Positions 1-58,232 of a DNA stretch of 64,000 bases are shown piece by piece. The stretch's first letter is position 1. Each line of letters begins with the position of its first letter. The position numbers and the translations under genes were made by a program. Source of the DNA: Balanoglossus misakiensis (Eukaryota; Animalia; Hemichordata); contig CM082576.2 of assembly GCA_040954595.2 (NCBI GenBank), forward strand, positions 16,167,028 to 16,231,027, written 5' to 3'. The notes beneath the pieces were generated by a model that worked only from the letters and a program-made list of their open reading frames with translations, searched no databases and had not been told where the DNA came from.

Positions 1-551
1 CCTTGGTATGCTCCCGCGCTCACTTTGGAACCCCTTGCTGTGGTCAGACTGATTCTATTTCTCCACAACTTTTCTGTTCATAAACACACCATCAGCATTG
101 TTCCTACTTAGTACTATCTGGGGAAAATTGCCAACCAATACATGTTTCGTAAAAGTTAAATGGAAATGTGATCAATACAAATTGTTTTCAATACAAATAG
201 TTTTCCATGACGTACAGTGCAACTGACAAACCTCTGAAGAGTTAAGCCTCAGTCTTCATCAAATTCTGGATTCTGATCAAGTCATTATAAGCCTAGTCGT
301 TCACTGATGCACTCTAAACTCAGACTAAAAACATGGTGGACGTGTTGTTGCATCAAAACTTTGGAATAAATTCTCTGCCATCTGACATTCACCAGGCTTC
401 TAGTCTTAACATCTTTAGACCAGAAGCAGATAGGTTGACCCCACCTTCTAAAGTATCTTATATGAGGTTCGTTGCAGTAAAATTTGATTTTTTTGTTTTG
501 TTAATCCAATGCGTACATGTAAAACCCTTGTTTTTTTTTTTTTATATTCAG

Positions 552-19762
<19,211 letters not shown>

Positions 19763-26090: not shown

Positions 26091-27757
26091 CTAGGAGCTT
26101 GGCTCACTAGTTCCATCCGCTTTTTCCTTCTGAAGTTTCAAGATTTCATCAAGCATGAATTGTAATGGATCTTCTGGTCGGTGGTACACTAAATTGGCAG
26201 TCAGTTGCTGTGTAAAGAAAATGAATGGGATTAAAATCAGTATCACCGGATTTATTTGATGACATTATTTGAGCAAGGTTCATATTGATAAGATCGGTCA
26301 AATATATTTGACTATCATCCTACAGAGTACAGGGAACATAGATTAAATTTACACTCGGAAATTGATTCAACTGCTACAATGATTTCATTTCATATATTCA
26401 TTTATAGCCATATCCCTTATTTACCCCGGTAGCAGTTCAGAGCAGTTATCTGAGGCACAAAAAGGTGGGCAGTTTAGACCACAGGACCACAAAACAATTG
26501 TTTTAAACAATGATGTAAAACTAAAATTCTGTGTACAGCTTCCTGCTTTTAACAGTCATGTGATATCAACAGGCAGCATTTTCTGATAGGTATGCAATGG
26601 ACAACAATACGTAAATACACAGTCTGGGAAAAACATGAGTGATTTAACAATGCCATACGTCGGATAATGGTCCCTGCAATATCACATGACAAAAGTGCCA
26701 AACTTGGCACTTTTTTCCTCTTTTAATATCAAATGTATACAGTTGATGAAGCCCTAGAATGCAATTCTGACACTATTTTGTTTGTATTTGTGAAGTACAT
26801 GTATTATACACTGCTTTTCAAAATAACCAAACACAAGACGTTATGTATTGTAAAAAAAAATAGAATTGCTGAATTTCCCCTTTAAATTGTAAATCGAACT
26901 TTGAAGTAGGAGAAAAATGATGGAAAAACACACTGAATAGTGCGCCAATTTCATTAACTGAGTCTACTTTGATCATCAACTTGTAAGAGCACATAACTGT
27001 CAGTCACTAAGAAGTGTTAACATTGGCTGAAAAGAGAGTTTAGTAACATTTGTCACCAAGAGGCGTGACCGTTCTACAGCTACGTCAGCTTGGCAAACAT
27101 GTCTCAACTTTAAAAAGTCAAAGTGTAAAAGTTACATGTAGCCGAATGGCTGAGTAAACTTACTGCAGTGCCAATTAAACAAATTCAAGACTTCACAGAT
27201 ATTTTGTATGTTTTTTTTTATCATTATGGATCAAAAGATGTTGAGTTTTCATTCCATATATACTATGCCGAATGAAGGTTAAACATGAAACGCTCAATAA
27301 TGTATAACATGCATAATGCGTGTTCTTTTGTTTTGTTATTGTTGACAACGTCGGCGTGCATAGAAACCACTTTTCATGACGAATATAACCAGTCGAGAAG
27401 TATCAAATACAACAGAAAATGAAACGTGTATATCTTTCCACCTCCTTAAACACCACTTACCTGAAATACGTGCATGACGTTGTATTTTTCTAAATATTTT
27501 ATTGCTCGCGTGTAGGGGTCTTCGACAGGGGGGACGTAAGCATACGAAGGGTCTTCGTCAACGCGGAGATCCTCCCCCAATTTTCTTTCAATTTCGTCTG
27601 TTACCGTTGTTGCATGATCCAAAGTGCTTGATATCGATGGAGCCACGTCTCTGAGTGGTTGATCGGGCAACGGCGTTGGGGCTTCACTCAAATCGCCCTG
27701 AGTTAGGAGGACATTCTGCAACTGTTCATTCTCCGGCTGCTGTAACACGTCCGCCAT
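26091..27757 (-). CDS. TEX55: TEX55/C3orf30-like protein with C-terminal Dpy-30/RIIa-like dimerisation-docking domain, 137 aa
   Basis: Exon 27757-27461 (MADVLQQPEN...[21 protein letters not shown], donor gtaagt) joins exon 26207-26091 ([24 protein letters not shown]...*). The joined motif [31 protein letters not shown] closely resembles the TEX55 C-terminus as recalled ([31 protein letters not shown]). Confidence 0.8.
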
Positions 27758-27799
27758 GATTCTTGCTGTTGGCTTCTTTGGGCACAATGCGTATCATCG

Positions 27800-27945
27800 T
27801 TGGTGGCGTCAGCATGCAAGACGCGGACGCGCGCGTCAAGGCGCCGTGGAGGGCGCGCGCGCGTCGGCGCTGGTATTACCCACAAGTCACTTCGATGGAA
27901 CACTTCCGGGGTATTTCCAAGACGGCCCTGGGACTTCCCCATATT
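27800..27945. promoter_or_regulatory. CpG-rich, probably bidirectional promoter between TEX55-like and Rel genes, with kB and Ets sites
   Basis: Local GC/CpG-rich patch (gcgcgcgc runs). CACTTCCGG (Ets/GABP) at 27901-27909, GGGGTATTTCC at 27908-27918, and GGGACTTCCC (fits GGGRNWYYCC) at 27930-27939. Confidence 0.55.
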
Positions 27946-29635
27946 CTATTTTTAGACATAACAAGAATGGGGTTTATAGCCGCATTTAAAAGTATACCTA
28001 GGTTATACTTCCAGTTGCTTATTTAAATCAATTTGAAACTAAAACAACACATGTGAACAAGCAAGTAAGCACTCAGCGTGCGTGTTGCAAATCTGACTGA
28101 AGATTCCGGACTCTGGACAGGGCCAAAAATAGAGGAGTGCAGTGTACATCGCGAAGTTTCATCAACGACACGCCGACTGACACATGTAGTTGTGGGTTGA
28201 GAATGGCAAGGAATGATATTTTAGAAACAGGTTTAATGCCATATAACGACATCGATCAAAGCAGCTTGACAGGTTGGTACTGATAAAACCGATAAGGTGA
28301 CTGTGTATCGTGTGTGGGGTGTGGGGTGTTGGGGGATGGGCAACTTGATGAATGAGAGAATGTTTGGTGTACAACTATCTCCTCTGCTACTAGTACTACT
28401 CCAGTACTCATGCTACTTTAGAAACTCAAGACATATAGCACGTGGTAAACTGAATCTGTCGGTCGGGGACGTCATCATGATCGTCTCCGTCTGATAAACA
28501 AAATATATTTTACCCTACATACGGACCGGTCGAGCCTATAAACCCGAAAACAAAATTGCGGTTCTTGAAATTTAAATTTTGTTCTAAATTACAGTGCCAA
28601 ATGTTCATTACAGACGCTCATATGAGTCATGACTTCCATATATGGAATCCAAGGGTGCGTAAGCGTTTACTACGTCCGGAAGTCATGTGAACTGAAAGTC
28701 CAGTTGATGAAATCATGAACGTAAAATTTATATCAATGTATATGGACTATCGATCTTTTCTTCTATTAGTATTATACCATATTTCCTGTTTATAAATGTC
28801 GAGTGCTAATTTTTAATTGGGACAGTTTTAATATCACTTCTTGGTTATTATGCAAATTTATGTCAACAAAATGACTGCTGATGAAAGTGATAAATTGATC
28901 CTAACCCTACCTAGTAATACTTATAGTATTGGGTGATTGAATGTCCGAATGCCAGTAAAGGTGTTATCGTAGTTATTCCAACGAAGTTACATGTACCACA
29001 GAATGAACAAAATGGCACTCTGCATATTTATAGCACATGTCATCAGCCTATGAAGAACACTATTCATCAGATCCCTCTTGTTCTCAGGAATATAAAACTG
29101 TCACTGTGTCATATTACTCCTTTTGACCAACTTTTTGAAGAACTAAATCCGCACCTTGTGAAAGTCGGTCACTGATCCAGTTCACAGACATTTGAATACA
29201 CTGCCAATACCAAGAGGGAATCTTCAAGTTGATTTAACGAGATAATTTTGAAGCCTTGCTGTTTTGAATCTGTGAGTGTTACTCAACAAACTAAACGTTA
29301 AAGCAAATGTCATAAAAATTCAGGAGAAATCCTAATTAGATTATAGAAACTGCAATGCATATACATTCCATTATGGAAGCAGTACTAAGTGTCCCTAATA
29401 TTCAAACTCATTATTTGGACAAATTTTAACAAACTAATACAGCCATGTGTGATATGATTTATAATATTGTTAAACACTATCATCATTACTTGTAATTACT
29501 GCCAGTGCTTCCAAGTTAACTTATGTCTCGTATTAAAAGATCACATTATATCAACTGCAATATATGTGTAAATATAATCATTAATAGATAATCAATCCAT
29601 TTTCAGCATGGTCAGGTAATTTACATCTGCAGCCA

Positions 29636-32600
29636 ATGGATTGCAGTATGATTGATGAAAATGCAACAGGGCTTATCATCATAGAACAACCACATGCAAG
29701 AAAACTGAGATTCCGTTACAAATCGGAAGGAGAGACTGCGGGAAGTATTGTAGGCGAAAATAGCACTGCAGAACGACCAACCTATCCCACTCTCCAGGTG
29801 AGTGATTATACATGTTCGAGTAATACATGTAATGTAACACGTTAGGCTATAATTCTGCTCTCTGGCCATTATTTCAACATTTACACTTCTAGTTTCCAGT
29901 TGCCGTAAGTACAAATGGCAGTTGAAGCTGTTTGTATCCGCTGCACAAGAATTAATAATCCTTTACATGTATGTGTGTAAATAACAGTACATCTATATGT
30001 TTTGATATTTGGTGTGCGAATTTCAATTCATCTTTTTATTCAACTATAAATGTTACTGAAAATGATGAACATGCCATTCACTGATTCAGTGATGATGAGT
30101 TTGTTGAATCTTAAGAGAAGTGTGCCATTTCATCTCAAGCAGTTGTCTGTTAATAGGTCTCTTGTTATTCCCTTTGGATGAAAGCCCAGGGGGCAAATAG
30201 ATTACCCTTTGTCTGTCTGTCATTTAGTCCATCTGTCCATCCACCTAGAGCCATTATTCAGTCAAATGCTTGGACTGATTCAAGGTTGACTGATTCCATT
30301 CAAACTTTGCACATGGGCAAGGCTTGCAAGCTAAAAATAACACATGACCTATACGTGACCTGGGTGTGCATGTGGCTGTGTTCTCTTGACTTGCATATGA
30401 TCACGTTCCTGGCATGTTTGGAGACACAGATGTTAATTAAAATTATCGCAACACAGTTTTATCAGACAGAGTACAGATTTCATTTGTCATCATTTTTGAT
30501 ACCTGTCTAACTGAAACAATGTTATTAAAGGTATACTGTCACCTCCAATTTACATACGCCCATATATGGCTGAAATGGCGTATTTGAGCGTTCTAAAGAA
30601 CATATGGTGGCGCTCTTTTTTTTCGCGTGTGCCACTGAAAATTAGTGATTGGCTAGATCTCAATGTGCCATGGTAACTATAGTATAGCTAATTTTCAATA
30701 GGTGACCATGTACCTTTAACTTTTTGAACCAACGTCATAGTGATGTGTATAATCCGTTCTTTGCATCAGTGTTTTTGGTTCTGTTTGTGACGACACCAAG
30801 CTTTTCTATATGTGAGAGCATATCATCACCTCTGACAAGACAGTGTGTATCAGTCAAAAGTCAGTCAACAAAAAGTTTTGTTAAGTTTGTAAGCATGCTG
30901 GCAAAAACACACATGAAAGGGTGTGCAGTACGCCGAACTATCAACACCACACATTGATTTATTTTATCACATGAGACCGACAACTGAGCAGCATATCAAC
31001 CAACAGTTGGCCCCTACACCTACAGCTATCTGGAAAAGGAGCTATTACTAACAATGATTTGCTTTTTGTGTGAAAGGTAATCAACTGTCAAGGTCCTGCA
31101 GAAATTGTTGTGAGTGCCGTCAGTAAAGATGATCCAGTATGTCCGCATCCATACAGTCTGGTGGGCAAGGATTGCAAAGATGGAGTGTGTATTCTCAAAG
31201 TAGCACCAGGACAAACAATTGTCAGGTAATCCATGTCAAGAATTATTAGACTTGTGAAGAAAACCATTACTGTCTTATAATTATACATTTTCATAAATTT
31301 CAGAAATTACACAGTATTTTCTTCTTTTTCACAAGTACATTAAATAAAAAAAGGCGCACACTCATTCCTGCATATGTGGAAATACACACTATCCCACTTG
31401 CATATGTTTTCTAACCTAAATTCCCAAGCCATTTCATCCACGTGCACATATTGCATAATCTATTACATTTAGGAAGACAGTTTCAAAAGGTTAGTCAGAA
31501 TAGGGTCTAGTGCACATGACTGGTTTTGGTGACAGAAGTGAAATCTTCAAAGCAATATGGTTATGACCTATTGACCTTTTCTGAGGCCAAAGATCGTGCA
31601 AATTGGTTCTAAGTTTAGAAATAATTGTTTAAAAAGAAGTCTGAGAAAGACTGAGCCAATTATCGACATGAATAGGTAAAATTTTAACAATGACCTACAC
31701 TGGAATATACGATTTATAACTTCTTAATGTAAAAGTTAACCTACATTTATGTTATAGGGTTAAAAAAAATTATACATATTTGGGCATTGATAAGTGAAAA
31801 TTATCTTTGATGAACTACATGAAGTTTCAAAGTTTGTTTCCATTAGTTTGTAAGCATCAACCTAAAGTGTTGGCTTTGCATAATCGTTTGTAGGTCAGTA
31901 GCCTTTGGTGTTTATTTTAGATACTTTCAGTTCCCTGTGACTTTATCAAGCAAGGCAAATGGAAATAAAAGGTTCCAATAGTTCACTATAATATTGGCAA
32001 ATGTCTTCTCTATTAAATTGAATCAATGAAAAACAGAAACTAGCAATGGTCTCCAACTATGATTATGAAGTTTTCACAGTTTTACATCTGTATCTTTTGC
32101 ATTGTTTCTTATTTCTAGCACATACCATGTCCACTTAACTTTTTTCTGTTATAGCTTATTCATATTGGTTTGTACATGGTGATATATTGTGTTTTTATTT
32201 TATGCACTCTTGAAATTTGTCATCTTGTGTGGTGATACAGCTAGATGATGGTTACCTCCAATTTACATACGCCCATATATGTCAGAAGTGGCGTATTCGA
32301 GTGTTCTAAAGAACATATTCTGGCGCTCTTTTTTCGCGTGTGCCACCCACTGAAAATCTGTGATTGGCCAGATCTCAATTTGCCATGGTATAAACTGTAG
32401 CTATATTTGCATAGGTGACCGTATACCTTTAATTTCTGTGTGACATGGCCGTATGATCAAAAATAACAGTGCATGATGATATTTGTCCAACAGCTGTTTT
32501 GGTATGGGTGTAAGGTGTGAAAAGAAGAAAGATGTCCCAGAAGCCTTTGGACTGAAGAAGAGAAATCCCAGGCAGGCATTCAGAGGTGAGAGAAATTGAG

Positions 32601-35600
32601 ATTCAACATGAACATTCAATTACTCTAACATTCAATGGCTCTTTGTATTAGGCTATTCCTAGATGACGTTACAATTGCAGAATTTTTTTAACAAACATTG
32701 TGTGCTTTGGAAAATTTAAAAAATGTATGAGTAGAGTACTCTGACATAAAATACACAATGATCAGTTGCCCTGTTTTACTGAAAAAAGTAATATCACATT
32801 GTGTGCACATTGTATGTCATGATGTCCACTGCAGTCCCAAAATAATGGTGAGAATAAAAGGACACACATGCCAGTAACACAATTGTATAATTTTGCACAC
32901 TTACAGTTAATATGAATATTCATTAGTGAACGAAGGGTGTGTTTGGGATTATTTGCATAAAAAGCCTGAGATTTGATTTGATTGATTGGGTGAGTGAGTG
33001 AGTGAGTTGTTGTTGTTCATTTATTCCTCCTCGAAGTATGAGAAGAGTTACATCAACACATTAAATTACAGAGGTACTGAGGGAAAAAAAGTCAAAATAA
33101 TACTAAATTATACAGGAAGGCTTCTGAGTGAGTGAGTGAGTGAGTGAGTAACACTCTGACTGACAGACATGAAATATTCGTAAAGTTCTCCGCTGCTTAG
33201 AATCTGATAATGCCACTTGAGTGCATTTGCAGAATTGACAAGGCTATGATTTATGCTGTGTCATGTTAGATAATAAGCAAATGAGTGTTTTTATCATCAT
33301 GTCTTGGAGCAAGATTTATCACTCAAACAACTGCTTCTACAGTGAAGACTTTGTTCGTAAAGGGACAAAGTCTCTCTCTCGCTGTACTTTTTACATTAAT
33401 TATGAATGATATAAGACACCGTTTAAGTTGATGTACATGTGGATATATAGTGAATCAATGTTCGACCACACACAACTTCCATCCCGTTTGTAGGATATGA
33501 GATTAAAAATCTCGCCCAAGTGTCTACAAGTGGGATTGAAGTTGTGTGAGGTTGAATGTTGATTCACTATATATCCACATGTAGAATAACATAAACATTG
33601 TCTTGTATCAAACATAATTAATGGGAAAAGGGCAGCGAGAGAGAGACTTTGTCCTTTTCCAGCAAAGGACACCTTTCAAGGTATGTTACACTTACAAGAA
33701 ATCTATCAAGTATTGCATGTCAAACTTACTCTTTGTTGTGGATGTGAATTTCAGATGAAATGTCTCGAAGACCAGATGATCTGGACGTCAACTGTTTGCG
33801 GCTCTGTTTCCAACTCTATCAGCCACATCCGGAATTTCCAGATTCCATGTCCCTTGTTTCGCAGCCTGTCTTGTCAAATCCCATCTTTGATAAAAGTAAG
33901 TCATATATGGGGGTCACACACACACACCATTAAGATGGTTCTTAAGCATCTCTGATCAGATATCCCGTCTTTAAAACACGTGTGGACGGTGTATAGTGGT
34001 TCTGAAACGGCTTAGATTTGAGACGGCTTTGCCGGCCAGACCTGACCGGTGTAAGGATTAACACCTCTCTGCAACTCATAGTCTATGGGACCACATACCC
34101 TAGAAAATGGGACCGAGCCTCAGTGCCTATACATAAACTTTGTGTGTGTGTTGACACAACGCGACTCAAAGGATTAATGCTCTGTTTTTACCATAGGCAA
34201 ATAGTGTCTCAAATTTTACCCTGTGTGAACCTGGTATTAACCAGTTGTTTGTAATCTGAGGAAAGTTGCTCGACATGCATAAATTTTAGTATTGACCTAA
34301 AATTAAATAAAAGACGTATTCATGTATTTTGCCCATATATGTAGACCTCGAGGTGAGCTGTGATTATTGGGCAGCAAGTTGGGAGGGGAGAGGGGTGGAC
34401 AAATGAATGGACTAAATTGAAAATACTTTACACTTTATTTGTGGACTACAGAAGCAGCTGGAACCTGTAATTTACAAATTGTCCGAATGGATAAGACAAG
34501 TGGAAAAGTGACTGGTGGCGATGAAATCTACATGTTTGTAGAAAAAGTGAAAAAAGGTGAATAGGCTCTTTAATGTGCAGATTAAGAGTTAATCAAACTG
34601 TTGATTTCATTTGCTTTTTCTAGAGTAAGACAATGATTTTTTTATTGTAAGACAACTATACTTAATTCAAAAGCAGCATGCAACAGTGATAAAGCAACTC
34701 CAAAACATAGTTTAGATGTTCACTGTTCTAGTGAAATGCATGTGTTGGGAAAACTAAAACAGGACATCAGAAAGCTTGGTTGTTCGGACTTTAAGTACCA
34801 GTATCTTTTTTGACGTTTTGGGATGTTACCGCTCCGGTTTGGACGAATCAATCTGTGCATCTAACCAAGCGATGACATTAATTAAATATGCCAAAATACA
34901 AAACGCTAATGTGACCTCAAAACCAAAATTGATACATATTCATGAGTTGCATGGGCCGCGAAGGATTTTGTTTCATGTATGATTCGCATACCTGAAGATT
35001 TCAGAATGGTTTCATTCAAAACTGAGTGTTCTGTGCTACAAAGGCCCGCAGGTGTGCCCCATCTTCAGCAATGTTTCATGAGCTTTATTATTTATACAAT
35101 ATTCTAATCTGGTGTATGTTATTTCTGTGCTAGATGACATTGAAATTCGATTTATTGACGGAAAATGGGAGTCCAAAGCAGAGTTTGGACAAAGTGATGT
35201 TCATAAACAGGTGGGTACCTGAAGATTAATTTTTAACTTGTGGTCGGTCGGTTGTTTCGTGCTGTGTTTATGTTTAAGTTGCAAGCCGTGTATTAGATGA
35301 GCCCACCACAGATGATAGCAGATCTTTGAACTCTCTCCAGCATGAGAATGCATGTCAGTATGTTGTGTATGTTTATACCTCTGGATTGGTCATCATTTCA
35401 GTCGTTCCTCCCATAGGAGATTCTTCAGACTGTCAGTTTTCCAGAAAGTGTTTTTTTAGGTAGAGCTATTAATTTAGATTATGTTTTGTTTCATTTTATG
35501 CTGACTTGTAAAATCAATTTTTCTTCATTGTTGGGCAAAAAGTCCTCTAAGAAGCAACCTGTCTAACTGTTTTTGAATAGTTGTTTTAACATACATCGTA

Positions 35601-38600
35601 CCTAGGAATGTTTAAGCAATAACCCCCGCCGCAGGCGGGTATATGCAAGATTTGGGTACAATTCGAGACATATAGCACGAGCCGTCAGGCGAGTGCTATA
35701 TGGAGCGAATTGTACCCAAATCGAGTGTATACCCGACTGAGGCCGGGGTTATTGCTATTATATGATATCAACAACTGTTTTTGTGGCATATCAGTGTAAT
35801 TTTCTTACCGAAATGGCGTCAGAAAGAGAAATTATGATCGTGAACCAACATGGCGACGATGAATGTAAACACGAGCGGCCGCGATCGAGCATTAAACATG
35901 AAGCAGACGACAAAAAGTGACAAGACGGGCATCGCGCGTGGCAAAGTGACAAATATTTCCACAGAGCAGTTCCAAAATAAAACGTCTGTTAATTCAAATG
36001 TATTTTTGTTTTATTTATTTGGTTTAAACACGCGCGACTGTGGTTTAACCGCACATTTTTGCTGCCGTATGCTAGTTCAGGGGCCCATTTTAGCACTGCC
36101 AGCAGTGCATTATGAGTATTTTAGCATCGCTGGATTGAGCTCTCGTCCAATCAGAATTGCGGACGGTAGCATGATATAATATAATCAAATTTATACAACT
36201 GATGACATTTGCAATATTGTATTTTTGGTAGTTGTCATTTTGGTCGAGAAATCTTCTCAGAAACCTATGTCTGATCATGCCGGTTTATATTTTGTTTGAA
36301 GAGTCAATTTGTATGTGCATTTTTTTTATATTTTTAAGGCTATGCCTAAAATCACAGTTTCTGACAAATCCTTGTTTCTGTTTAATTTCAGTATGCCATT
36401 GTGTTCAAGACACCGGCCTATCAAAAATTAGACATTTCCAATCCAGCAACAGTTCAAATTAAGCTCTACCGACCTTCCAACAGTGAATACAGTGATCCTG
36501 TCAAGTTTATATACAAGCCGGCTATCTCAGGTAATTCTTCAGAGGGATACTTGGTTTTGAAATGTCATATTAAAGGGACAAAGTCCCTCTCGCTGCCCCT
36601 TTTCCATTAATTATGTTTGATACAAGACACCATTTATGTTAATGTACATGTGGATATATAGCGAATCAATGTTCAACCACACACACCTTCCATCAAATAT
36701 ACTTAATGGAAAAAGGACAACGAGAGAAAGACTTTGTCCCTTTAAAAGAAGATGACCCTTTTTTTTTTCTTATCTGTGACCATTGCCATAGATGTAAAAT
36801 GAATTCTCTAGGCAATAAAGTTTCAAGAGTGGATGCCAATTAATGACTTAGAGCAATATAAAAGCTCGTATCTTTTTGTTTTCCCGTTACATGCTGTTAA
36901 AGGTTTTATACTTGGGTACATTTTCAGTAAAAGAAGTTATACTTATAACACCATAAAAGTCAAATGGAAGGCCGGAAGAATGATTGCAAACAAGGTTTTG
37001 AAAGACGTTACCAAGATTTACTGTTGTTCATGCACAAATTACAACCCGAAATCACTGATTTTTAGAAGGTCCTTGAAAATGCATGTCATGTGACCACTTC
37101 ATAAAAGATTATTGTCGTTTGTGGAGTGACTGTGGTACTGTACATGATCAGGTTCCTGCTTTTTCAAAAAAAAAACAATCAAAAAACTTCTGCTAGTTCT
37201 GCGCATATATAGTTTATGAAGACTAATGAATAGACTTGGATTTTGTGCAGTTTATGAAGCAATGACTTTCTTGTGTTCCTTGCTTTGTTCTCTGTTTTTA
37301 GATAGCGAAGAAATCCAAAGAAAAAGGAAGAAGTTTGCAAGCTTTGACAAATTTCTTAAGGGGAACCAGCCATCTCTATTCAGAAGTAAGTATCAAACAA
37401 TTGATCCTAGTGGACATTGGTGGCAGTACAGGAGTGTGGTGGTACCTTCAGCAAAGGGCGAGATTGTAAGACCCTGCTCTGTGAAGTCTTCAGATACTCA
37501 GATACAATTTCATTTATCTCACATGTAATGGCATTGGTGTGGCCATTTATTAATAGTCTGAGCTGCCCTGATCCAGTTTAGATTGTACATTTTGCTGTAA
37601 GTACGCTTGTATATACAAAACAATTCTAAACTCTTAACGAATATGATGAATAACCACGTAAGATGAGGTATTTCAATTTATGTGAATACCTTCCCATTTT
37701 GTATGTGGATATATACCCGGGGAGCTTATGAAATCAGTACACTCACATGTATATCTTTATGTTTTCTCTTCAGAACCACTACCAGAACCAGAACTCCTTC
37801 CCAGACCATCTCATTATGTAAGGGAGAGGTTGCCAATGAAAGCTGAACACTCTGCTGATTCCAGTATGCCTATCCCGTATCAAAGAATGAACCATTGGCA
37901 GAACGTCACGGGTCAACAGCAGCGCTTGCCAGCAATGCCCTCTGGAGGTCAACCACCAAACAGACAAGCGTTGAAGAGGCCACTGGAGAATCACGGCGCT
38001 ACCACAACTCAGACAGCACACATGGTTTCTGGGCAAAGGCAGAGCTTTAAGTTTTGTGCCGGAAGAACCGCTGGTATCCCGGGAGAGTATCAGCAAGTGC
38101 CTGCAATGCCACCAGCACTGACAAAGCCACCGGACGAATTCCCGATTCGCAGCGTTCTCGATTTCGCCGAGACGCATTCGGTGCCGGTGATCGGACGGGC
38201 CATGAGCGAAATGCTGGAACGGCGGACGCCTTCGCCTCACGGTTCGCAGAGGGAACAAGGCACGAGGGACGTCAGACTGGAGAGAAAGACGCCCCTTCCA
38301 CACGGCTCACCACGGCCGGCATTCGAAGCCAATCCGTCTTCACCCAGTCATGGCGGCAGCTACAGTCAACAGTCGCCAACCATCGAACCCAGCGCCACCG
38401 AGGACAAGTTCTTCGATCAGATGCTGACCAGTCTGTCGCAGACTCCACAATCATCCCTGGAAGGACTCACACTGGAATCGGTCGATGAATTCTTCGCAGC
38501 CAGCGAGCTCCAGACGAACAACTCGTCCACTCCAAAACAAAACGTCCGTGTCAACCCAGCCCGTAAAGATTTGCAATTTCTACACAGTGATGTTGTGTGT

Positions 38601-41600
38601 GATGGCAGTCCTCTGACTGAACTGGTGGATCCACCATTCACACATGTGGTGAAGACAGACACGGCTTTTCAACTGAACACCGCTGCAGACTTGCTGGACA
38701 CAGGTTCCCTCGACGCACCCAGAATGCACGGCACAGTAGATCAAACGGTGCCCATCAACGATGGCGACATGATCAATCACGTAGGTACAAATGCATTCCA
38801 AGACGAGCAGGTGGTTCCCGTCGCTGGACTCTACCCTACGGTGTCCTCTGTGATCGACCACAACGGCGGAAAGCTAGAAATGTCCGACCTTGGTGTTTCT
38901 TTGGTGGTGCCAGCCAACGCCCTTGCCCCTGGAAGAACAGAGCGCATATCGCTCAGTATCAGCTGGCATAAACCTGACAAACCTGCCTTAGGAGACGGTG
39001 AAGCTTGGATCAGTCCAGTTGTTTGTTGTGAACCCACAGGAATACGGTTCGACACACCAGTTGCTTTGTCTTTCGAGCATTGTCTCAATTTCAAAGACAA
39101 ACATCGAGGGAGGATCAACCTGCAGTGTAGTAATACTGAGTTGGGTAAGTCTTCTTAGTGTATACCATATTAATATATGCATACTTTTATGTGATTATCA
39201 AAGATTTCTTCCCATAAAGTAAAGAAATACATGTAATGTTGAAATGAAATAGGTCAAATAAAATGGATCGTGAAAATGGAGCTGTAGAATAGGAAACAAA
39301 GTATTATTTGTAGGGTAAGTAAGTGGTGTCATTAATAAAAATTTGTTGGGGAAATCTACACTGAACATGATTTTTTCATGCCATGAAGTTGGCAGATGTT
39401 TTCTTGTACATAATGTATGTACATGATGGATGGATGTACCGGTAGTGTGGGGAATCACCATCCAGCAAAATGCTCTAATTTCTACATTTAATAATGTCAT
39501 TAAATTTTACATTTCACGTTGGTTATTTAGTTATTTTTCTTTCATGAATTTGTAAAAAGAAAAAAATAACATTGTTAGAGAGATACAGAAACGTACAGAT
39601 GCTGTTTACAGACATCTATATGTACTGGGCACAGTCAAGTTGGCGTACTTTGGCTATGTGATCGTCTTCATGATATGAAAGCTTTCAGATTGCCGTCAAA
39701 TTCAACAAAAATGGGGAATTTTATTTGTTAAATTCTCATGGTTCTGTATTTTACGTATCACATACAGGAGCTCAAAATAGATGGATGAAGAAATCCATTG
39801 AGGACACAGACGAATGCACATGTCTCGTCACTGAGAATAGATGTGTTGTCATCACGGATCATTTCACAAAGTACGGTTTGAGCGCCGATATGACGGAGGA
39901 AATGTCCAAACGGATCAAAGTTGCAGTCTTCACAGCGCCGATCGAACATCCCCATTCTGATGTCATCCTCAGGGTGTACGCTATTGATAACACAAAAGTG
40001 GCCTATCAGGTGTGTACAAAGATCATGTCTTGCGTATCACGTGTAATATGGATTGTAGTTCACTCATCATTAAGCTTGTGATTTGTGAATAAATAGAACT
40101 AAAATCTCAGCAGAAAAAAAAACATCTCCCTGAAAGAATTCCCTTCAAATCTATATTCTGCATTAAATTTCCAGAAACTCCAACTTTGCGCTTTTTTCTT
40201 CATGTTTTTGTTTTGGGTATAAACCACGTTTTTTGGTTCTACTCTGTACTATATAAACATGAATAATTTCTCAGTATTGGGTTTTTCAACACAGGCCTTT
40301 TGTACATGTAGTAAATAGCATTGTTATTGTTAAAAATTGAATTAAAGTCCGGACTTGAATTCATTTGTCAACAATAACAATGGCTAGAACTCATATACAG
40401 GCTTTGTTGAGAAACAAAAAACTGAATATTTCATAAATCTAACCAGAGTAGATACATGTACTTGGGAGAAAAATACTGGAAAAATAGCCAAAAGTTGAAG
40501 TTCCTTAGAGTCTATCATTGACCATGTGACAGACATTTGCCATGACTGGATCTGACGAATGAAATGATGATTTTCTTGTCCAGGAAATGATAACTGAAGA
40601 GGAACACATGAAAGGGTCACTGGCTGAGGCTACAAAGTATTATCATTTTTTCGACAACCAAACAGACCTGGATGTTATGTTGGAATCTCTTGATGATGGC
40701 TGGCAGTTGGTCAAATGTCAAACGTGCATTGTAAGTACTGTTTTATAATTGCATTGGTCTTACCAGAAAGTTTGACGGAAAAAAAATATGTCAGGTTTTT
40801 GAGATTTCATCCAGCAGAGTTCAGAGCTTGTTTACAACCAAGTCACAAAATTAATTGGAGTTAACTTTTTCTTGACTATCTGGCAGTGAGATGATTGTTG
40901 TGTTCTACAATCTTATCAATCTCTTGCTATTAATACACCCATTGCAAATACTATAGCTTTTAATAACATCTTCCATCACAGGGATAAAATGAGTCAACAA
41001 ACAAGGTGATTGTCACAATGAAACCTTAATAACTATACCAAAAGCAATGGCATTCATTTTCGCGACCATTTGTGGAGTGACCGCGAACAGAAGAAGCACC
41101 AAGTTGAAGAATGGTGATCAAAAAGCTGTGTCACCCTGTAAAATTGGTCTTGCAGTTTTCATCTTTTCTGGTGTATTTACAGTCATTTAGTCTACAGTTT
41201 GTGTACCTACAATGTACCCGGTACAGACATCACAAGTAGCCATAGCAACTGTGGATGTTGCTTGATTAATAGTCACTGAAATGTACTGTGTGTGTTTTTA
41301 TTATAGGCCTTACCTAGAAAAGACATTCTGGAAGGTTTGAAGACAAGCTGTACGTTCCGATTCTCTAACCGCGGAAAATGTTTGCAATTTGGATCCAACG
41401 TCCAAGTGCACCAGAAAAGCAATACCAATAGCCCCATACTCTTTACCATCAGTAAGAGTATAAAGGTATGTTATATTATCACTTAAATTTCAATTTACTT
41501 TATAGTGTTTGTTTTATGAACATACATGTAGCCTCTTTTTTTGAATCAATTGTTTTCTTCATCCACTAGCAGCTGTATGTCCACTATCTGCAACTTTCAG

Positions 41601-42878
41601 CTTTATTTTTTTTAATTCTGTGAATTAACCTTGGTTTCTTGATCTAAAGTGTTAGGCTTCCAAATATAGGCCATGTGTGCACACTCGACATTGTTTTTGT
41701 TTGCAAAATATTTTCAAGTCCAGACTTGAATGCATTTGTAAACAATAACAATGGTCTCTCCAAATACTGTACTGAACTGTACTGTCTGTCTGTCTCTCTG
41801 TCTGTCTGTCCGTCCGTCTGTCTGTCTCTCTGTCTGTCCGTCTGTCTATGTGATGTGTCTGTTTAAAGTGTGCATGTTCATAGGCAGTACTTTATTCAAT
41901 TCATTTGTTTTAAACTTTTATGCGCATTTGCTCATTTTGCTAAGGTTTATTTACTACATCTGACCTGCATTTATTTATTTCCTAACTTTTTAGCAACCGG
42001 AGCAGTTGCCAGTAGTACCCGTTGGAGCAAGTATGATGTATCGTGAATCATCCACTTTAGTGCATCAGCCCTACCCTGTTACTGATGCAGCTGTACAACA
42101 GTCATCATATGCTCCAGTGACACCCCAACTGAGACCTGTCAGAAGACCCGTGCTTGCACTGCCAACAAATGAAGCTTCATTCTCCTCCGATTCTGGCATG
42201 GAGTCGTCGCTGGCAAGTCTGTCTTTCTCCCCGGATGATTTAAAGAATGTCATCCCGTTCGATGTCAAACAAAAGCTGAGCTTGCTGTTAGACCCGATAC
42301 GCGACCCCACTGGAAATGATTGGCGCATGTTGGCGTCGAAGATGGGGCTCAGCGCGCTCATCCCGAACCTGTCAATGCAGCGGAGCGCAACACGGTCACT
42401 GCTACTGCACTGGGAAACAAACCACGATCCCAGTGAAAATCTGCACGAGCTTATAGGGATGGTTGAAGGTATAGGCAGACCGGACGCGGCAAGGATCCTT
42501 AAGGAGTACGATCAGCTACAGCAAAGACAAAGAAACACTAGCAGTCAGAGTTTACCCGCCCTTGTAGCTCCCGACTCTGTAGATGGTGAGTGTGTTCTGA
42601 CAGCGAACAGTTCTGCTCCCGATTTGCTTAATGTCAAAGCTTGTAATCTGACCACACCGGACATTCACCAACTCTCCTCTGATGTCAATCGAAATCCTGC
42701 TGCTAATGTGACTGAAATGACCGGAACAGTTCAACATACACACGAGCAATTCCCAGAATCCGGGGATCTGCTTCAGGCTTTGAATGAGAGGTGTAACCGC
42801 ATCCAAAATTCGCAAATGACAGACCATCGAATTCTGGCCCAAAGATCAGGGTCTGATGAAACTAATGAAAATTTCTAG
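29636..42878 (+). CDS. Rel/NF-kB family transcription factor fused to ZU5-UPA-Death domains (~1250 aa)
   Basis: 13 phase-compatible GT-AG exons: 29636-29797, 31077-31225, 32494-32585, 33755-33895, 34452-34556, 35134-35210, 36392-36530, 37302-37385, 37774-39144, 39768-40009, 40584-40730, 41307-41465, 41994-42878. Total 3753 nt = 1250 aa + stop. RHD motifs: EQPHARKLRFRYKSEGETAGSI, PHPYSLVGKDCKDGVC, LRLCFQ, VLSNPIFDK. IPT motifs: GGDEIYMFVEKVKKDDIEIRF, DVHKQYAIVFKTP. NLS RKRKK, followed by ZU5, UPA and a death domain. The exact start is uncertain because the frame is open back to the acceptor at 29607. Confidence 0.9.
30529..30715. mobile_element. MITE family D
   Basis: TTAA|AGGTATACTGTCACCT...AGGTGACCATGTACCT|TTAA. 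Confidence 0.72.
32251..32428. mobile_element. MITE family D, left end eroded
   Basis: Same body as 30529-30715, ending AGGTGACCGTATACCT|TTAA. Confidence 0.68.
33361..33655. mobile_element. MITE family A
   Basis: AGGGACAAAGTCTCTC...GAGACTTTGTCCTT in Rel intron 3. Confidence 0.75.
35615..36180. mobile_element. Unclassified element beginning with a ~145-bp hairpin
   Basis: AGCAATAACCCC...GGTACAATTCG...TATAGCAC[GAGCCGTCAGGCGA]GTGCTATA...CGAATTGTACC...GGGGTTATTGCT, then a CpG-rich body. The right boundary is approximate. Confidence 0.5.
36574..36741. mobile_element. MITE family A, internally deleted
   Basis: TTAA|AGGGACAAAGTC...GACTTTGTCCCT|TTAA. Confidence 0.75.
38841..41465 (+). other. ZU5 and UPA domains (UNC5/ankyrin/PIDD type) of the Rel gene
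   Basis: ZU5: VIDHNGGKLEMSDLGVSLVVPANAL...ISPVVCCEPTGIRFDTPVALSFEHC...W...VVITDHFTKYGL. UPA: KRIKVAVF...ILRVYAIDNTKVAYQEMITEEEHMKGSLAEA...DLDVML...GWQL...SCTFRF...VQVHQ. Confidence 0.87.
42246..42509 (+). other. Death domain (UNC5/p105-like) of the Rel gene
   Basis: IPFDVKQKLSLLLDPIRDPTGNDWRMLASKMGL...SATRSLLLHWE...LHELIGMVEGIGRPDAARIL. Confidence 0.9.
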
Positions 42879-53710: not shown

Positions 53711-54570
53711 CTATTGTGAAAGGTTTGAATCGGACGCGATAGACTCAACGCACTCGGTGTCAGGAATTGCAAGGCCCCATTTGCCCTCGCTATCCAGAAC
53801 ATGGAGAGCCCTGGATTTCTTACCAATTCCGAAGATGAGACCGTTTTTCTGAATGGCAATGTCCCTGACGCCGAGTCCTTCGGTCTTGAAAGTGGCCCAA
53901 GTGCCGCCCAGACCGTCGCGGACCTTCAGAAGACCTTCCTTGGTGACACCGAAGATTCTTCCGTCGGGGTGGACATCTACGGCCACCACTCCCTTGCTGC
54001 GACGAACGTCGGTCCAAGCGCTGCCCGGAGTCGTTCGGGGGTCCGGACGCGTCACCAGCAGCCCTTCCGTGGACACTCCCAGCAAGGTGCCGTCCGACAT
54101 GACGGTGACATCTTTGACGCAGCAGCTGTCGGGAAGCGGCCCCACCCAGTCGCCAACGTGCGGTGATTCTTTCCTGTAAACCTGATGGTCGTCTTTGACC
54201 CCCAGCAAAGAGTGGTCGTGCAAGATGCCAATACTCTCGACGCAGCAACTGCCTCCCACCTTTTCCCATTTACCAAGCATTGATGCGCGCTGAACCAATT
54301 TCTTGGTGCATTCTACACCGATCATAGGTGCTGTGGAAAAAAAACACAAACAAAAACAAATGAGCACGTGTATATATCGGGCATGTTTTTTTTCTGTCTT
54401 CAATCTCCAAACCTCACCACAAACACACATTTTGCCGACTGGAGAAATTCATTGAGCCAATAAGAAGAATAGTATGGACTATTGAAATACATGTACACGT
54501 ACTTACCAATACCATATGCTGTGTGAATTATCAGCTGAAGCAACAGCGTCGATACTAATACTCGCCACAC
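53711..54570 (-). CDS. Tectonin/tachylectin-like beta-propeller repeat protein, paralog B (~227 aa; GTG in place of start ATG)
   Basis: Signal exon 54570-54507 ([V]WRVLVSTLLLQLIIHTAYGI, donor gtaagt) joins exon 54330-53711, which has about five ~38-aa repeats (W-x4-6-S-CC-V-x2-V-x4-DG-x-LLGV-x4-L-x2-R). AATAAA at 53395-53390. A probable non-coding exon has its donor at 54951-54946. Confidence 0.75.
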
Positions 54571-57349: not shown

Positions 57350-58232
57350 CTATACGTACATATTGTCTAATGATGCAATAGATTCGACGCAACCGGAATC
57401 AGGGATCAACTCCCAAGTACCATCTTTGAGGACGTAGAGGGAGTCCAATTTCTTCCCAATTCCATATATGTCACTGTTTGGCTGTATGGCAATATCCTTG
57501 ACATTTACACCGGATGACTTATACAGACTCCAGGTTGAGGATAAACCATCGCGAACCTTCAGTGACCCTTTTGGAGTGACGCCGAGTATTCGACCATCTG
57601 GGAAGACATCTGCAGCAACCACTCCGAGGCTGTGGGGGACGTCGACCCAATCGCTGTTCAAGTCTGCACGATGCACCAGCTTCTCGTCCTTGTGAACGCC
57701 CAGGATGGAACCGTCTGCCATGAAGGCGACATCTTTAATGCAGCAACTGTTCTCAACGGGCCCTTGCCATTCACCGACATTTGGCGCCACTTTGTAGTAC
57801 AACTCTCGGTCTTTCACACCCAGTACAAACTCGTCATCACGTATCGCCACGTCATCCACGCAGCAGGTACCTTCAGCCAAATGCCAATTGCCGTCATGGT
57901 GACTACGTGTAACCAGGTTGCCATCACAGTCAGCCCCGAGCATTCTAGTTGCTGAAAGACAAAACAGCGTGGTGAACATCCGATATAACTCGCCAACCTA
58001 AAAAAAATATTGATTTAGAGGGAGCAAATGGAATGGATGGCCCCCACCCTACTTCCCGCCCTCCCTCGTTCCCTCCCTCCCTCCATCTAAACCATCACAA
58101 GGCCCACCCCGTGACACACATGCTGGCATTCCCTCAGTCACAGCGTAATATCAGAGTTTAATACCTACATCCACAATCTCCAAGACAAATCCACAGTTGG
58201 ATTATCAGTAGAGAGGCACAAATTCGCCACAT
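57350..58232 (-). CDS. Secreted tectonin/tachylectin-like beta-propeller repeat protein, paralog A (221 aa)
   Basis: Signal exon 58232-58169 (MWRICASLLIIQLWICLGDCG, donor gtaggt) joins exon 57951-57350. It aligns end to end with the 53711 gene (GVVAADVFPDGRILGVT vs GVVAVDVHPDGRIFGVT; IPDSGCVESIAS vs IPDTECVESIAS). AATAAA at ~57220-57240. Confidence 0.82.

Follow-up and report, generated by a model that had tools for sequence, protein, structure and literature searches.

A Rel homology domain joined to a ZU5-UPA-death domain module in the acorn worm Balanoglossus misakiensis and its predicted self-cleavage site

Control of the known NF-kB proteins operates by IkB binding, by trimming in the proteasome, or by a caspase cut. 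A gene of the hemichordate Balanoglossus misakiensis raises the question of whether a Rel-family protein can also be cut by a module of its own, and which of its parts such a cut would serve. The gene lies in a stretch of 64,000 nucleotides (assembly GCA_040954595.2, contig CM082576.2, positions 16,167,028 to 16,231,027 of the forward strand), here called the window, from whose first letter all positions are counted. It encodes a Rel homology domain (RHD) with its dimerisation (IPT) domain, followed by a nuclear localisation signal (NLS), a linker, ZU5, UPA, a second linker, a death domain (DD), and a tail. An earlier note on this DNA had pointed to a His-Phe-Thr (HFT) motif in ZU5 and had proposed a self-cleaving NF-kB precursor. 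The chemistry and the motif are of known kinds, and the fusion of Rel to ZU5-UPA-DD is the finding. The reading favoured in this paper is that the protein would cleave itself constitutively in cis, that the two halves would remain clasped, and that UPA-DD would be kept armed for later release; the whole chain is given a probability of roughly 0.45.

The gene model and the position of the HFT motif

The frame is open through the gene, and GT-AG boundaries are found at 13 of 13 introns (Table 1). The evidence for the spliced model is its AG/GT junctions together with its collinearity to an orthologue, not RNA. This orthologue, a Ptychodera flava protein of 1299 amino acids (aa; P0001), was the 1 protein obtained from 12 candidates with the first RHD exon as the query, and it is 54% identical to the Balanoglossus protein over the full length. 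With the ZU5-UPA of P0001 as the query, 2 proteins were obtained from 427 candidates, adding a protein of Glandiceps talaboti (P0002). Both are 'uncharacterized' in NCBI, both are collinear with the gene model, and both have the same five Pfam domains (RHD, IPT, ZU5, UPA, and Death). By sequence comparison, the closest relatives of the gene are those of acorn worms; among RHD matches of 714-2274 aa (120 listed of 167), ZU5 was found in these two only. Mis-joining of adjacent genes was ruled out because two independent database orthologues share the domain order.

On single exons, Pfam recognized RHD_DNA_bind (E 1.4e-13) and RHD_dimer (E 8.8e-13), and seven exon pieces gave, in order, RHD_DNA_bind, RHD_dimer, ZU5, a weak UPA, and Death. 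The UPA of P0001 reaches E 4.3e-11, and the coding sequence of ZU5 is split by an intron at 39145-39767. An earlier model of 13 exons and 1250 aa reproduced that of the earlier note, which placed the motif at H805 and gave an N-terminal fragment of 806 aa. The exon at 28203-28272, joined to the acceptor at 29607, contributes 33 residues that match the N-termini of both orthologues; the numbers are thereby corrected to H838 and 839 aa, and the C-terminal fragment of 444 aa stands. The predicted masses of the two fragments are 93 and 49 kDa.

Positions 39860-39868 read CATTTCACA, which encodes His-Phe-Thr in the context VVITD-HFT-KYGL, and the exon lies between an AG (39767) and a GT (40010). 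Both orthologues read TDHFTKYG. HFT is the sole instance of H[FL][ST] in the 1250-aa model, and the chance expectation of HF[ST] is 0.19 per protein of such composition. By itself the tripeptide is weak, and it is the position that gives it meaning. A ZU5-UPA-DD profile of the two orthologues had UNC5B (3g5b) as its top match (E 5.2e-36), with HFT on QLG. The UNC5B Leu under F839 is chain position 137, or L677 when the chain start of 541 is counted. D'Osualdo et al. (PMC3210808) equate L677 with F296 of CARD8, which immediately precedes the scissile bond.

The ZU5-UPA-DD of P0001 was folded in AlphaFold, because the ZU5-UPA of the window is spread over four exons; the ZU5-UPA of the two is 69-70% identical. 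The model has a mean predicted local distance difference test score (pLDDT) of 87.3 and a predicted template modelling (TM) score of 0.81, and HFT (138-140) occupies the turn linking strands 131-138 and 141-147. Against UNC5B 3g5b it gave Z 38.8 and a root mean square deviation (rmsd) of 2.5 over 371 aligned residues, with a target TM of 0.86. CARD8 7jn7 (Z 16.4, rmsd 3.7, 249 aligned) and rat NLRP1 7crw (Z 16.4, rmsd 4.0, 246 aligned) followed, and a GAIN domain was a weak match (Z 8.9). The alignment of the free ZU5 of ZO-1 ends at model residue 139, which is the Phe, and that of the ZO-1 peptide complex at 148; therefore the strand after the bond completes the ZU5 sandwich. In NLRP1 the same strand lets ZU5 hold UPA-CARD after cleavage (Huang et al., PMC8081665). 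Pfam gave no PIDD-type peptidase family on exon 11, and no PIDD1 or UNC5CL ZU5 structure is among the structure matches listed. The claims of the earlier note that HFT stands at the end of ZU5 and that this site is equivalent to a known autoproteolysis position are thus borne out by the sequence, the profile register, and the orthologue model.

Conservation of the motif among ZU5-UPA relatives

When the profile was run against 1.84 billion representatives, there were 969 matches at E 0.001, of which the best 150 were examined. A ZU5-UPA stretch is present in 148 of the 150, and the motif columns read HFT in 60 and HFS in 17. HF[TS] is seen in relatives as far apart as Saccoglossus and other deuterostomes (amphioxus and echinoderms), a mussel, and a soft coral. 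A tree of 145 rows (the 148 minus 4 short rows, plus the Balanoglossus protein) splits a 52-row UNC5-receptor clade from 93 other rows. Pfam scans of 60 proteins showed 13 UNC5 receptors with Ig/TSP domains, and all of these fall in that clade. HF[STC] is present in 78 of the 93 non-UNC5 rows and in none of the 52 UNC5-clade rows; for xF[STC] the counts are 89 of 93 versus 1 of 52, and Phe stands at its column in 92 of 93. The nucleophile column ranks 1 of 254 for S/T/C content, with 12 changes on the tree, 3 of them out of S/T/C. Of the 22 columns with the highest conservation, it is those of H and F that lose their residue in UNC5. UNC5 receptors are reported to be non-cleaving (PMC10084454).

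On this alignment the motif is the norm of the family, inherited along with the ZU5-UPA module. Thr as a special feature of the Balanoglossus protein was rejected, as Thr is the family mode. Because the motif is the family norm, its presence says little on this particular protein, and the motif could then be an inherited structural turn with no or slight cleavage, the whole protein being a Rel-family factor or scaffold with an UNC5-like autoinhibited ZU5-UPA-DD. It agrees with such a reading that the three closest proteins are in any case identical to one another at 125 of 288 ZU5-UPA columns, that the nearest solved structure is the non-cleaving UNC5B, and that a tested Thr-type ZU5 was not found in the passages cited. 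However, interchange that hardly ever leaves S/T/C, and the fact that UNC5 receptors have lost H, F, and the nucleophile together, look like the pattern of a catalytic site instead of a structural one, and in a group of 11 proteins described below the Phe is invariant and is always followed by Thr, Ser or Cys. An uncleaved protein is therefore regarded as unlikely, and self-cleavage at F839|T840, judged from these sequence patterns, as likely. The conservation called for by the earlier note was found in both orthologues, with a pattern of the nucleophile type.

The nearest sequence relatives of the C-terminal half are invertebrate proteins named 'UNC5C-like'. Such cytosolic proteins and UNC5CL resemble it in having a single ZU5-UPA-DD with HF[ST] in the same column; vertebrate UNC5CL lies outside the alignment. 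UNC5CL, for which autoproteolysis is stated (PMC10084454), has a transmembrane helix, whereas the Balanoglossus protein has a full N-terminal Rel homology region, an NLS, and a long linker. UNC5 netrin receptors provide the closest solved structure; the Balanoglossus protein differs from them in having no Ig/TSP ectodomain. Among the best 150 of 969, the non-UNC5 rows of P0124-P0267 represent a large invertebrate cytosolic ZU5-UPA-DD family, often mislabelled as netrin receptors, with HFT, HFS, SFT or TFT at the site. One ZU5-UPA-DD relative, P0151, has an SH2 domain. The sequences suggest that these invertebrate cytosolic proteins are likely an unstudied set of self-cleaving immune adaptors.

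The RHD profile matches 6 of the 150 representatives: P0001, P0002, P0122, P0145, P0179, and P0205. The Patiria miniata protein P0122 has RHD, IPT, a partial kinase-like domain, ZU5, and DD; its RHD is 31% identical to that of the window, with a degenerate recognition loop and the NLS lost. The kinase-like part is placed between the degenerate RHD and ZU5. A paralogue of it, P0123, has HFC at the site, and the model of Amphiura filiformis P0185, which may be truncated, opens with the apparent C-terminal end of a kinase. In the crinoid proteins P0145, P0179, and P0205, IPT is the only Rel part modelled and is without the conserved dimer motif. In a predicted crinoid structure, IPT folds confidently, the linker is disordered, and HFS occupies the same turn.

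In the ZU5-UPA tree, an 11-row clade contains the acorn-worm proteins, P0122, the crinoids, and four RHD-less echinoderm models. Its support is 0.91 (FastTree, 145 rows), 96 (quick tree, 52 rows), and 89/75 (careful tree, 31 rows), and in each of the 11 proteins a Thr, Ser or Cys comes directly after the Phe. A single ambulacrarian origin of the Rel-ZU5-UPA-DD proteins is likely from these trees; at such support, a single origin as proven was set aside. The echinoderm relatives keep F[T/S] despite a DNA-binding domain that is degenerate (P0122) or unmodelled (crinoids). The predicted site thus persists beyond the loss of DNA binding, a sign of selection on the ZU5-UPA-DD part of the protein.

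Predicted consequences of a cut for the death domain and the Rel half

As proposed here, Thr840 would attack the preceding carbonyl in an N-O acyl shift, with His838 assisting and Phe839 buried, and the ester would hydrolyse. The new N-terminal strand of the C-fragment would complete the ZU5 sandwich and clasp the halves together. Afterwards the half containing RHD, linker, and ZU5 would be clipped, degraded or pulled away, which is the weakest step, and the freed UPA-DD would nucleate a death-domain complex of PIDDosome or IRAK type, with the Rel half serving as a sensing or coupling arm. The chemistry and clasp are extrapolated from PIDD1, CARD8, NLRP1, and Nup98. If cleavage occurs, it is very likely by this analogy that the halves remain bound, as the earlier note had considered possible; CARD8 and NLRP1 precedent and the strand register make this the best prediction. 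Given cleavage and bound halves, UPA-DD as the main primed output is rated as fairly probable.

CARD8 is cleaved constitutively, and its two parts do not come apart before degradation of the N-fragment, which frees the C-terminal part (PMC9213247). The halves of NLRP1 likewise remain associated until N-terminal degradation frees the C-terminal part (PMC9213247, PMC8081665), and it is from these two that degradation of the N-fragment is inferred to free an active C-fragment here. Both FIIND proteins share the ZU5-UPA fold, a cut before the locking strand, and a disordered N-terminal region with the Balanoglossus protein, but have SF|S, a distal catalytic His, a CARD, and DPP9 control, whereas the site of the latter is HF|T, its effector is a death domain, and it includes a Rel domain. 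PIDD1 has the same ZU5-UPA-DD C-terminus, and its HF|S autoproteolysis yields PIDD-CC (PMC9162469); its cleavage is constitutive and necessary but not sufficient (PMC7883297). It has leucine-rich repeats (LRRs), two ZU5 domains, and two cuts, whereas here RHD replaces the LRRs and there are one ZU5 and Thr; Pfam found one ZU5 stretch and no LRR in the orthologues. Published accounts describe Thr as the nucleophile of GAIN/GPS (PMC9539791) and, more broadly, as one that this chemistry can use (PMC9162469).

Several points weigh against the favoured reading. The tested ZU5 nucleophiles in the passages cited are Ser, none Thr. Thr is the commonest residue in the nucleophile column (71 of 93 non-UNC5 rows), a share that may be inflated because the search profile carried HFT and the best 150 of 969 were used; the relatives also share descent, and the row counts are not independent. 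The closed arrangement of the module is not independent evidence, because AlphaFold has seen 3g5b, and cleavage of this protein is a prediction from sequence and modelled structure. The effector is a death domain and not the CARD of CARD8 and NLRP1. For the crinoids, brittle star, and urchin, the N-termini are taken from gene models in databases, which may lack parts. Finally, the RHD (80% and 68% identical to that of the window in the two acorn-worm orthologues), the NLS, and most base-contact residues are conserved in acorn worms, as would be expected equally of a functional transcription factor and of a sensor. Because RHD and NLS are so well conserved there, the rival readings with a transcription factor stay in contention.

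Among PDB matches of the orthologue RHD, c-Rel is best (E 2.9e-77), followed by p65, RelB, p52, and p50. As in the Rel class (c-Rel, RelA, and Dorsal), the aligned loop is of Rel type, with no p50/p52 insert and no EGPSHGGL-type loop, and an NLS is present. Unlike in that class, the recognition loop of all three acorn-worm proteins carries Ser in place of Cys and Glu in place of the Arg after it, the dimer domain has residues like those of p50, and the C-terminal part is ZU5-UPA-DD. Arg, Arg, Tyr, and Glu at base-contact positions are kept in the alignment. In an unrooted RHD tree of 20 rows, built without NFAT and deuterostome invertebrate Rel, the three proteins sit on a long branch of their own, apart from the NF-kB (98) and Rel/Dorsal (87) groups. 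The NLS-like motif, kept in both orthologues, aligns with that of NF-kB proteins.

With p105/p100/Relish the protein shares an N-terminal RHD, an NLS, and a C-terminal death domain, and proteolysis could part the ends. However, Pfam found no ankyrin repeats in full-length P0001 or P0002, and past the NLS there is no glycine-rich region (the linker is 6% Gly, and p105/p100 rows turn Gly-rich there); the protein therefore falls outside this class, with ZU5-UPA instead. In the model, the last ZU5 strand stays on the C-fragment after the cut. A cut alone would not separate RHD from UPA-DD, because RHD keeps nearly the whole ZU5, and this grips the C-fragment, and cleavage by itself probably does not mature or free a transcription factor. 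On these grounds, and with a site that outlives the recognition loop, the NF-kB precursor of the earlier note is not upheld.

In a modified form, UPA-DD could keep the Rel half cytoplasmic until a signal removes the C-fragment, with an IKK/beta-TrCP degron or death-domain recruitment freeing the 93-kDa fragment of RHD, NLS, and activation region. The stop signal that the glycine-rich region provides in p105/p100 would here be supplied by the break, and a proteasome or partner would most likely still be needed. Besides RHD and NLS, an acidic-hydrophobic segment, similar in P0001 and weaker in P0002, is a possible transactivation region by composition, and the ZU5 of ZO-1, ending at the equivalent Phe, was solved without the last strand. 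A degron-like DSGxxS lies in the C-fragment, three crinoid proteins have DSGH[TA]S in a comparable position, and DSGxx[ST] is found past UPA in 16 of 90 non-UNC5 rows versus 0.9 expected, for a pattern chosen post hoc and taken as a lead only. Against this stand the lack of the degron at the equivalent place in both closest orthologues and of ankyrin repeats, the 355-aa low-complexity linker that keeps RHD and ZU5 apart, and the persistence of the site where recognition loop and NLS are lost. Such a release of Rel is regarded as improbable.

The linker is 18% invariant in the three acorn-worm proteins, with 3 conserved islands. One of these, SDVVCDGSP (consensus SDV[VE]CD[GS]SP, with similar motifs in crinoids), resembles a caspase site, V-x-x-D|G. 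As in Relish, a caspase recruited by primed UPA-DD could cut at VVCD626|G and free RHD and the activation region, about 626 aa; this would be partly compatible with the favoured reading, as a downstream step. A caspase-like motif upstream of ZU5 is present in 6 of 7 RHD/IPT-bearing proteins versus 2 of 78 other non-UNC5 rows, an enrichment inflated because the pattern was drawn after the sequences were seen, and likewise a lead only. The stretch around the motif is disordered in the crinoid model (pLDDT under 50 for 149-354) and hence exposed. Patiria P0122 is without the motif, the crinoid models with it are without the DNA-binding domain, and the island may be a binding motif instead. A caspase route is considered even less probable than release of Rel by removal of the C-fragment.

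A joint reading, also rather doubtful, is that Ambulacraria have a third Rel lineage that combines both outputs. In it the Rel half would be an NF-kB look-alike serving as a tripwire, whose attack or turnover, as in the functional degradation of NLRP1, would free the DD signal; in acorn worms Rel would in addition be released via its own caspase-like site or degron.

Neighbouring features and significance of the fusion

Table 1 Features of the window and of the Rel-ZU5-UPA-DD gene
Feature	Position	Strand	Detail or basis
EML5/6-like WD40 microtubule-associated protein	about 490-18500	+	Many exons; one with Pfam Beta-prop_EML_2
Intronic tandem array	16395-17183		Units of about 45-50 bp; GGGAC-A-Y-CCC core per unit; 16 kB-pattern sites
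Divergent Tex55-like gene, exon	27452-27793	-	Weak Pfam Tex55, E 5e-5
Two kB-like sites	27909..27939	+	21 bp apart; ~270-295 bp upstream of start codon
Rel-ZU5-UPA-DD gene	28203..42878	+	14 exons, 1283 aa
Exons 1-5	28203-28272, 29607-29797, 31077-31225, 32494-32585, 33755-33895	+	
Exons 6-10	34452-34556, 35134-35210, 36392-36530, 37302-37385, 37774-39144	+	
Exons 11-14	39768-40009, 40584-40730, 41307-41465, 41994-42878	+	
First coding exon	28203..28272	+	Aligned to N-termini of P0001 and P0002
RHD DNA-binding and dimerisation (IPT) domains	29607..36530	+	Exons 2-8; Pfam, single exons
RHD recognition loop	29699-29743	+	
Basic NLS-like motif past IPT	37316..37333	+	aa 327-332; sequence
Acidic-hydrophobic segment	38400..38495	+	aa 559-590; composition
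Linker island SDVVCDGSP	38586..38612	+	aa 621-629; one of 3 conserved islands
ZU5 domain	38832..39886	+	aa about 703-846; Pfam ZU5 E 3.2e-20; orthologue model
HFT motif, H838-F839-T840	39860..39868	+	Exon 11; predicted scissile bond F839|T840
UPA domain	39908..41456	+	aa about 854-986; exons 11-13; weak Pfam UPA, single exons
DSGxxS degron-like motif	42189..42206	+	aa 1055-1060; UPA-DD linker; sequence
Death domain	42252..42515	+	aa about 1076-1163; Pfam Death E 3.1e-13
Two paralogous tectonin-like beta-propeller open reading frames	53711-54430, 57350-57979	-	Weak Pfam Tectonin

As seen in Table 1, two kB-like sites lie in the head-to-head promoter region common to the Rel-ZU5 gene and the Tex55-like gene, and from them the gene may be NF-kB-inducible. 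The strict kB pattern has 3 sites in the 64 kb outside one tandem array; a looser pattern is not enriched across the window (6 found versus 3.4 expected). The two tectonin-like reading frames are possibly immune lectins.

The Rel-ZU5-UPA-DD fusion was not found in targeted searches of part of the literature; the survey of Liao 2014, reportedly of ZU5, GAIN, and Nup98, could list the architecture. In the main text and one supplementary file each of PMC8662601 and PMC10210618, on hemichordate and metazoan immune domains, the term 'ZU5' is absent. In the ESM Atlas, which covers clusters of at least 50, clusters of ZU5, ankyrin, DTHD1, and FIIND were listed under 0.8, none with RHD.

The fusion places a Rel domain and a self-cleaving module of the PIDD/NLRP1 type, as predicted here, in one protein, and would thus bring transcriptional immunity and death-domain signalling together in a single chain. 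It occurs in the sister group of the chordates. Moreover, the gene offers a clean test of Thr-type ZU5 cleavage, the outcome of which would bear on the large invertebrate family, where HFT is more frequent than any other form.

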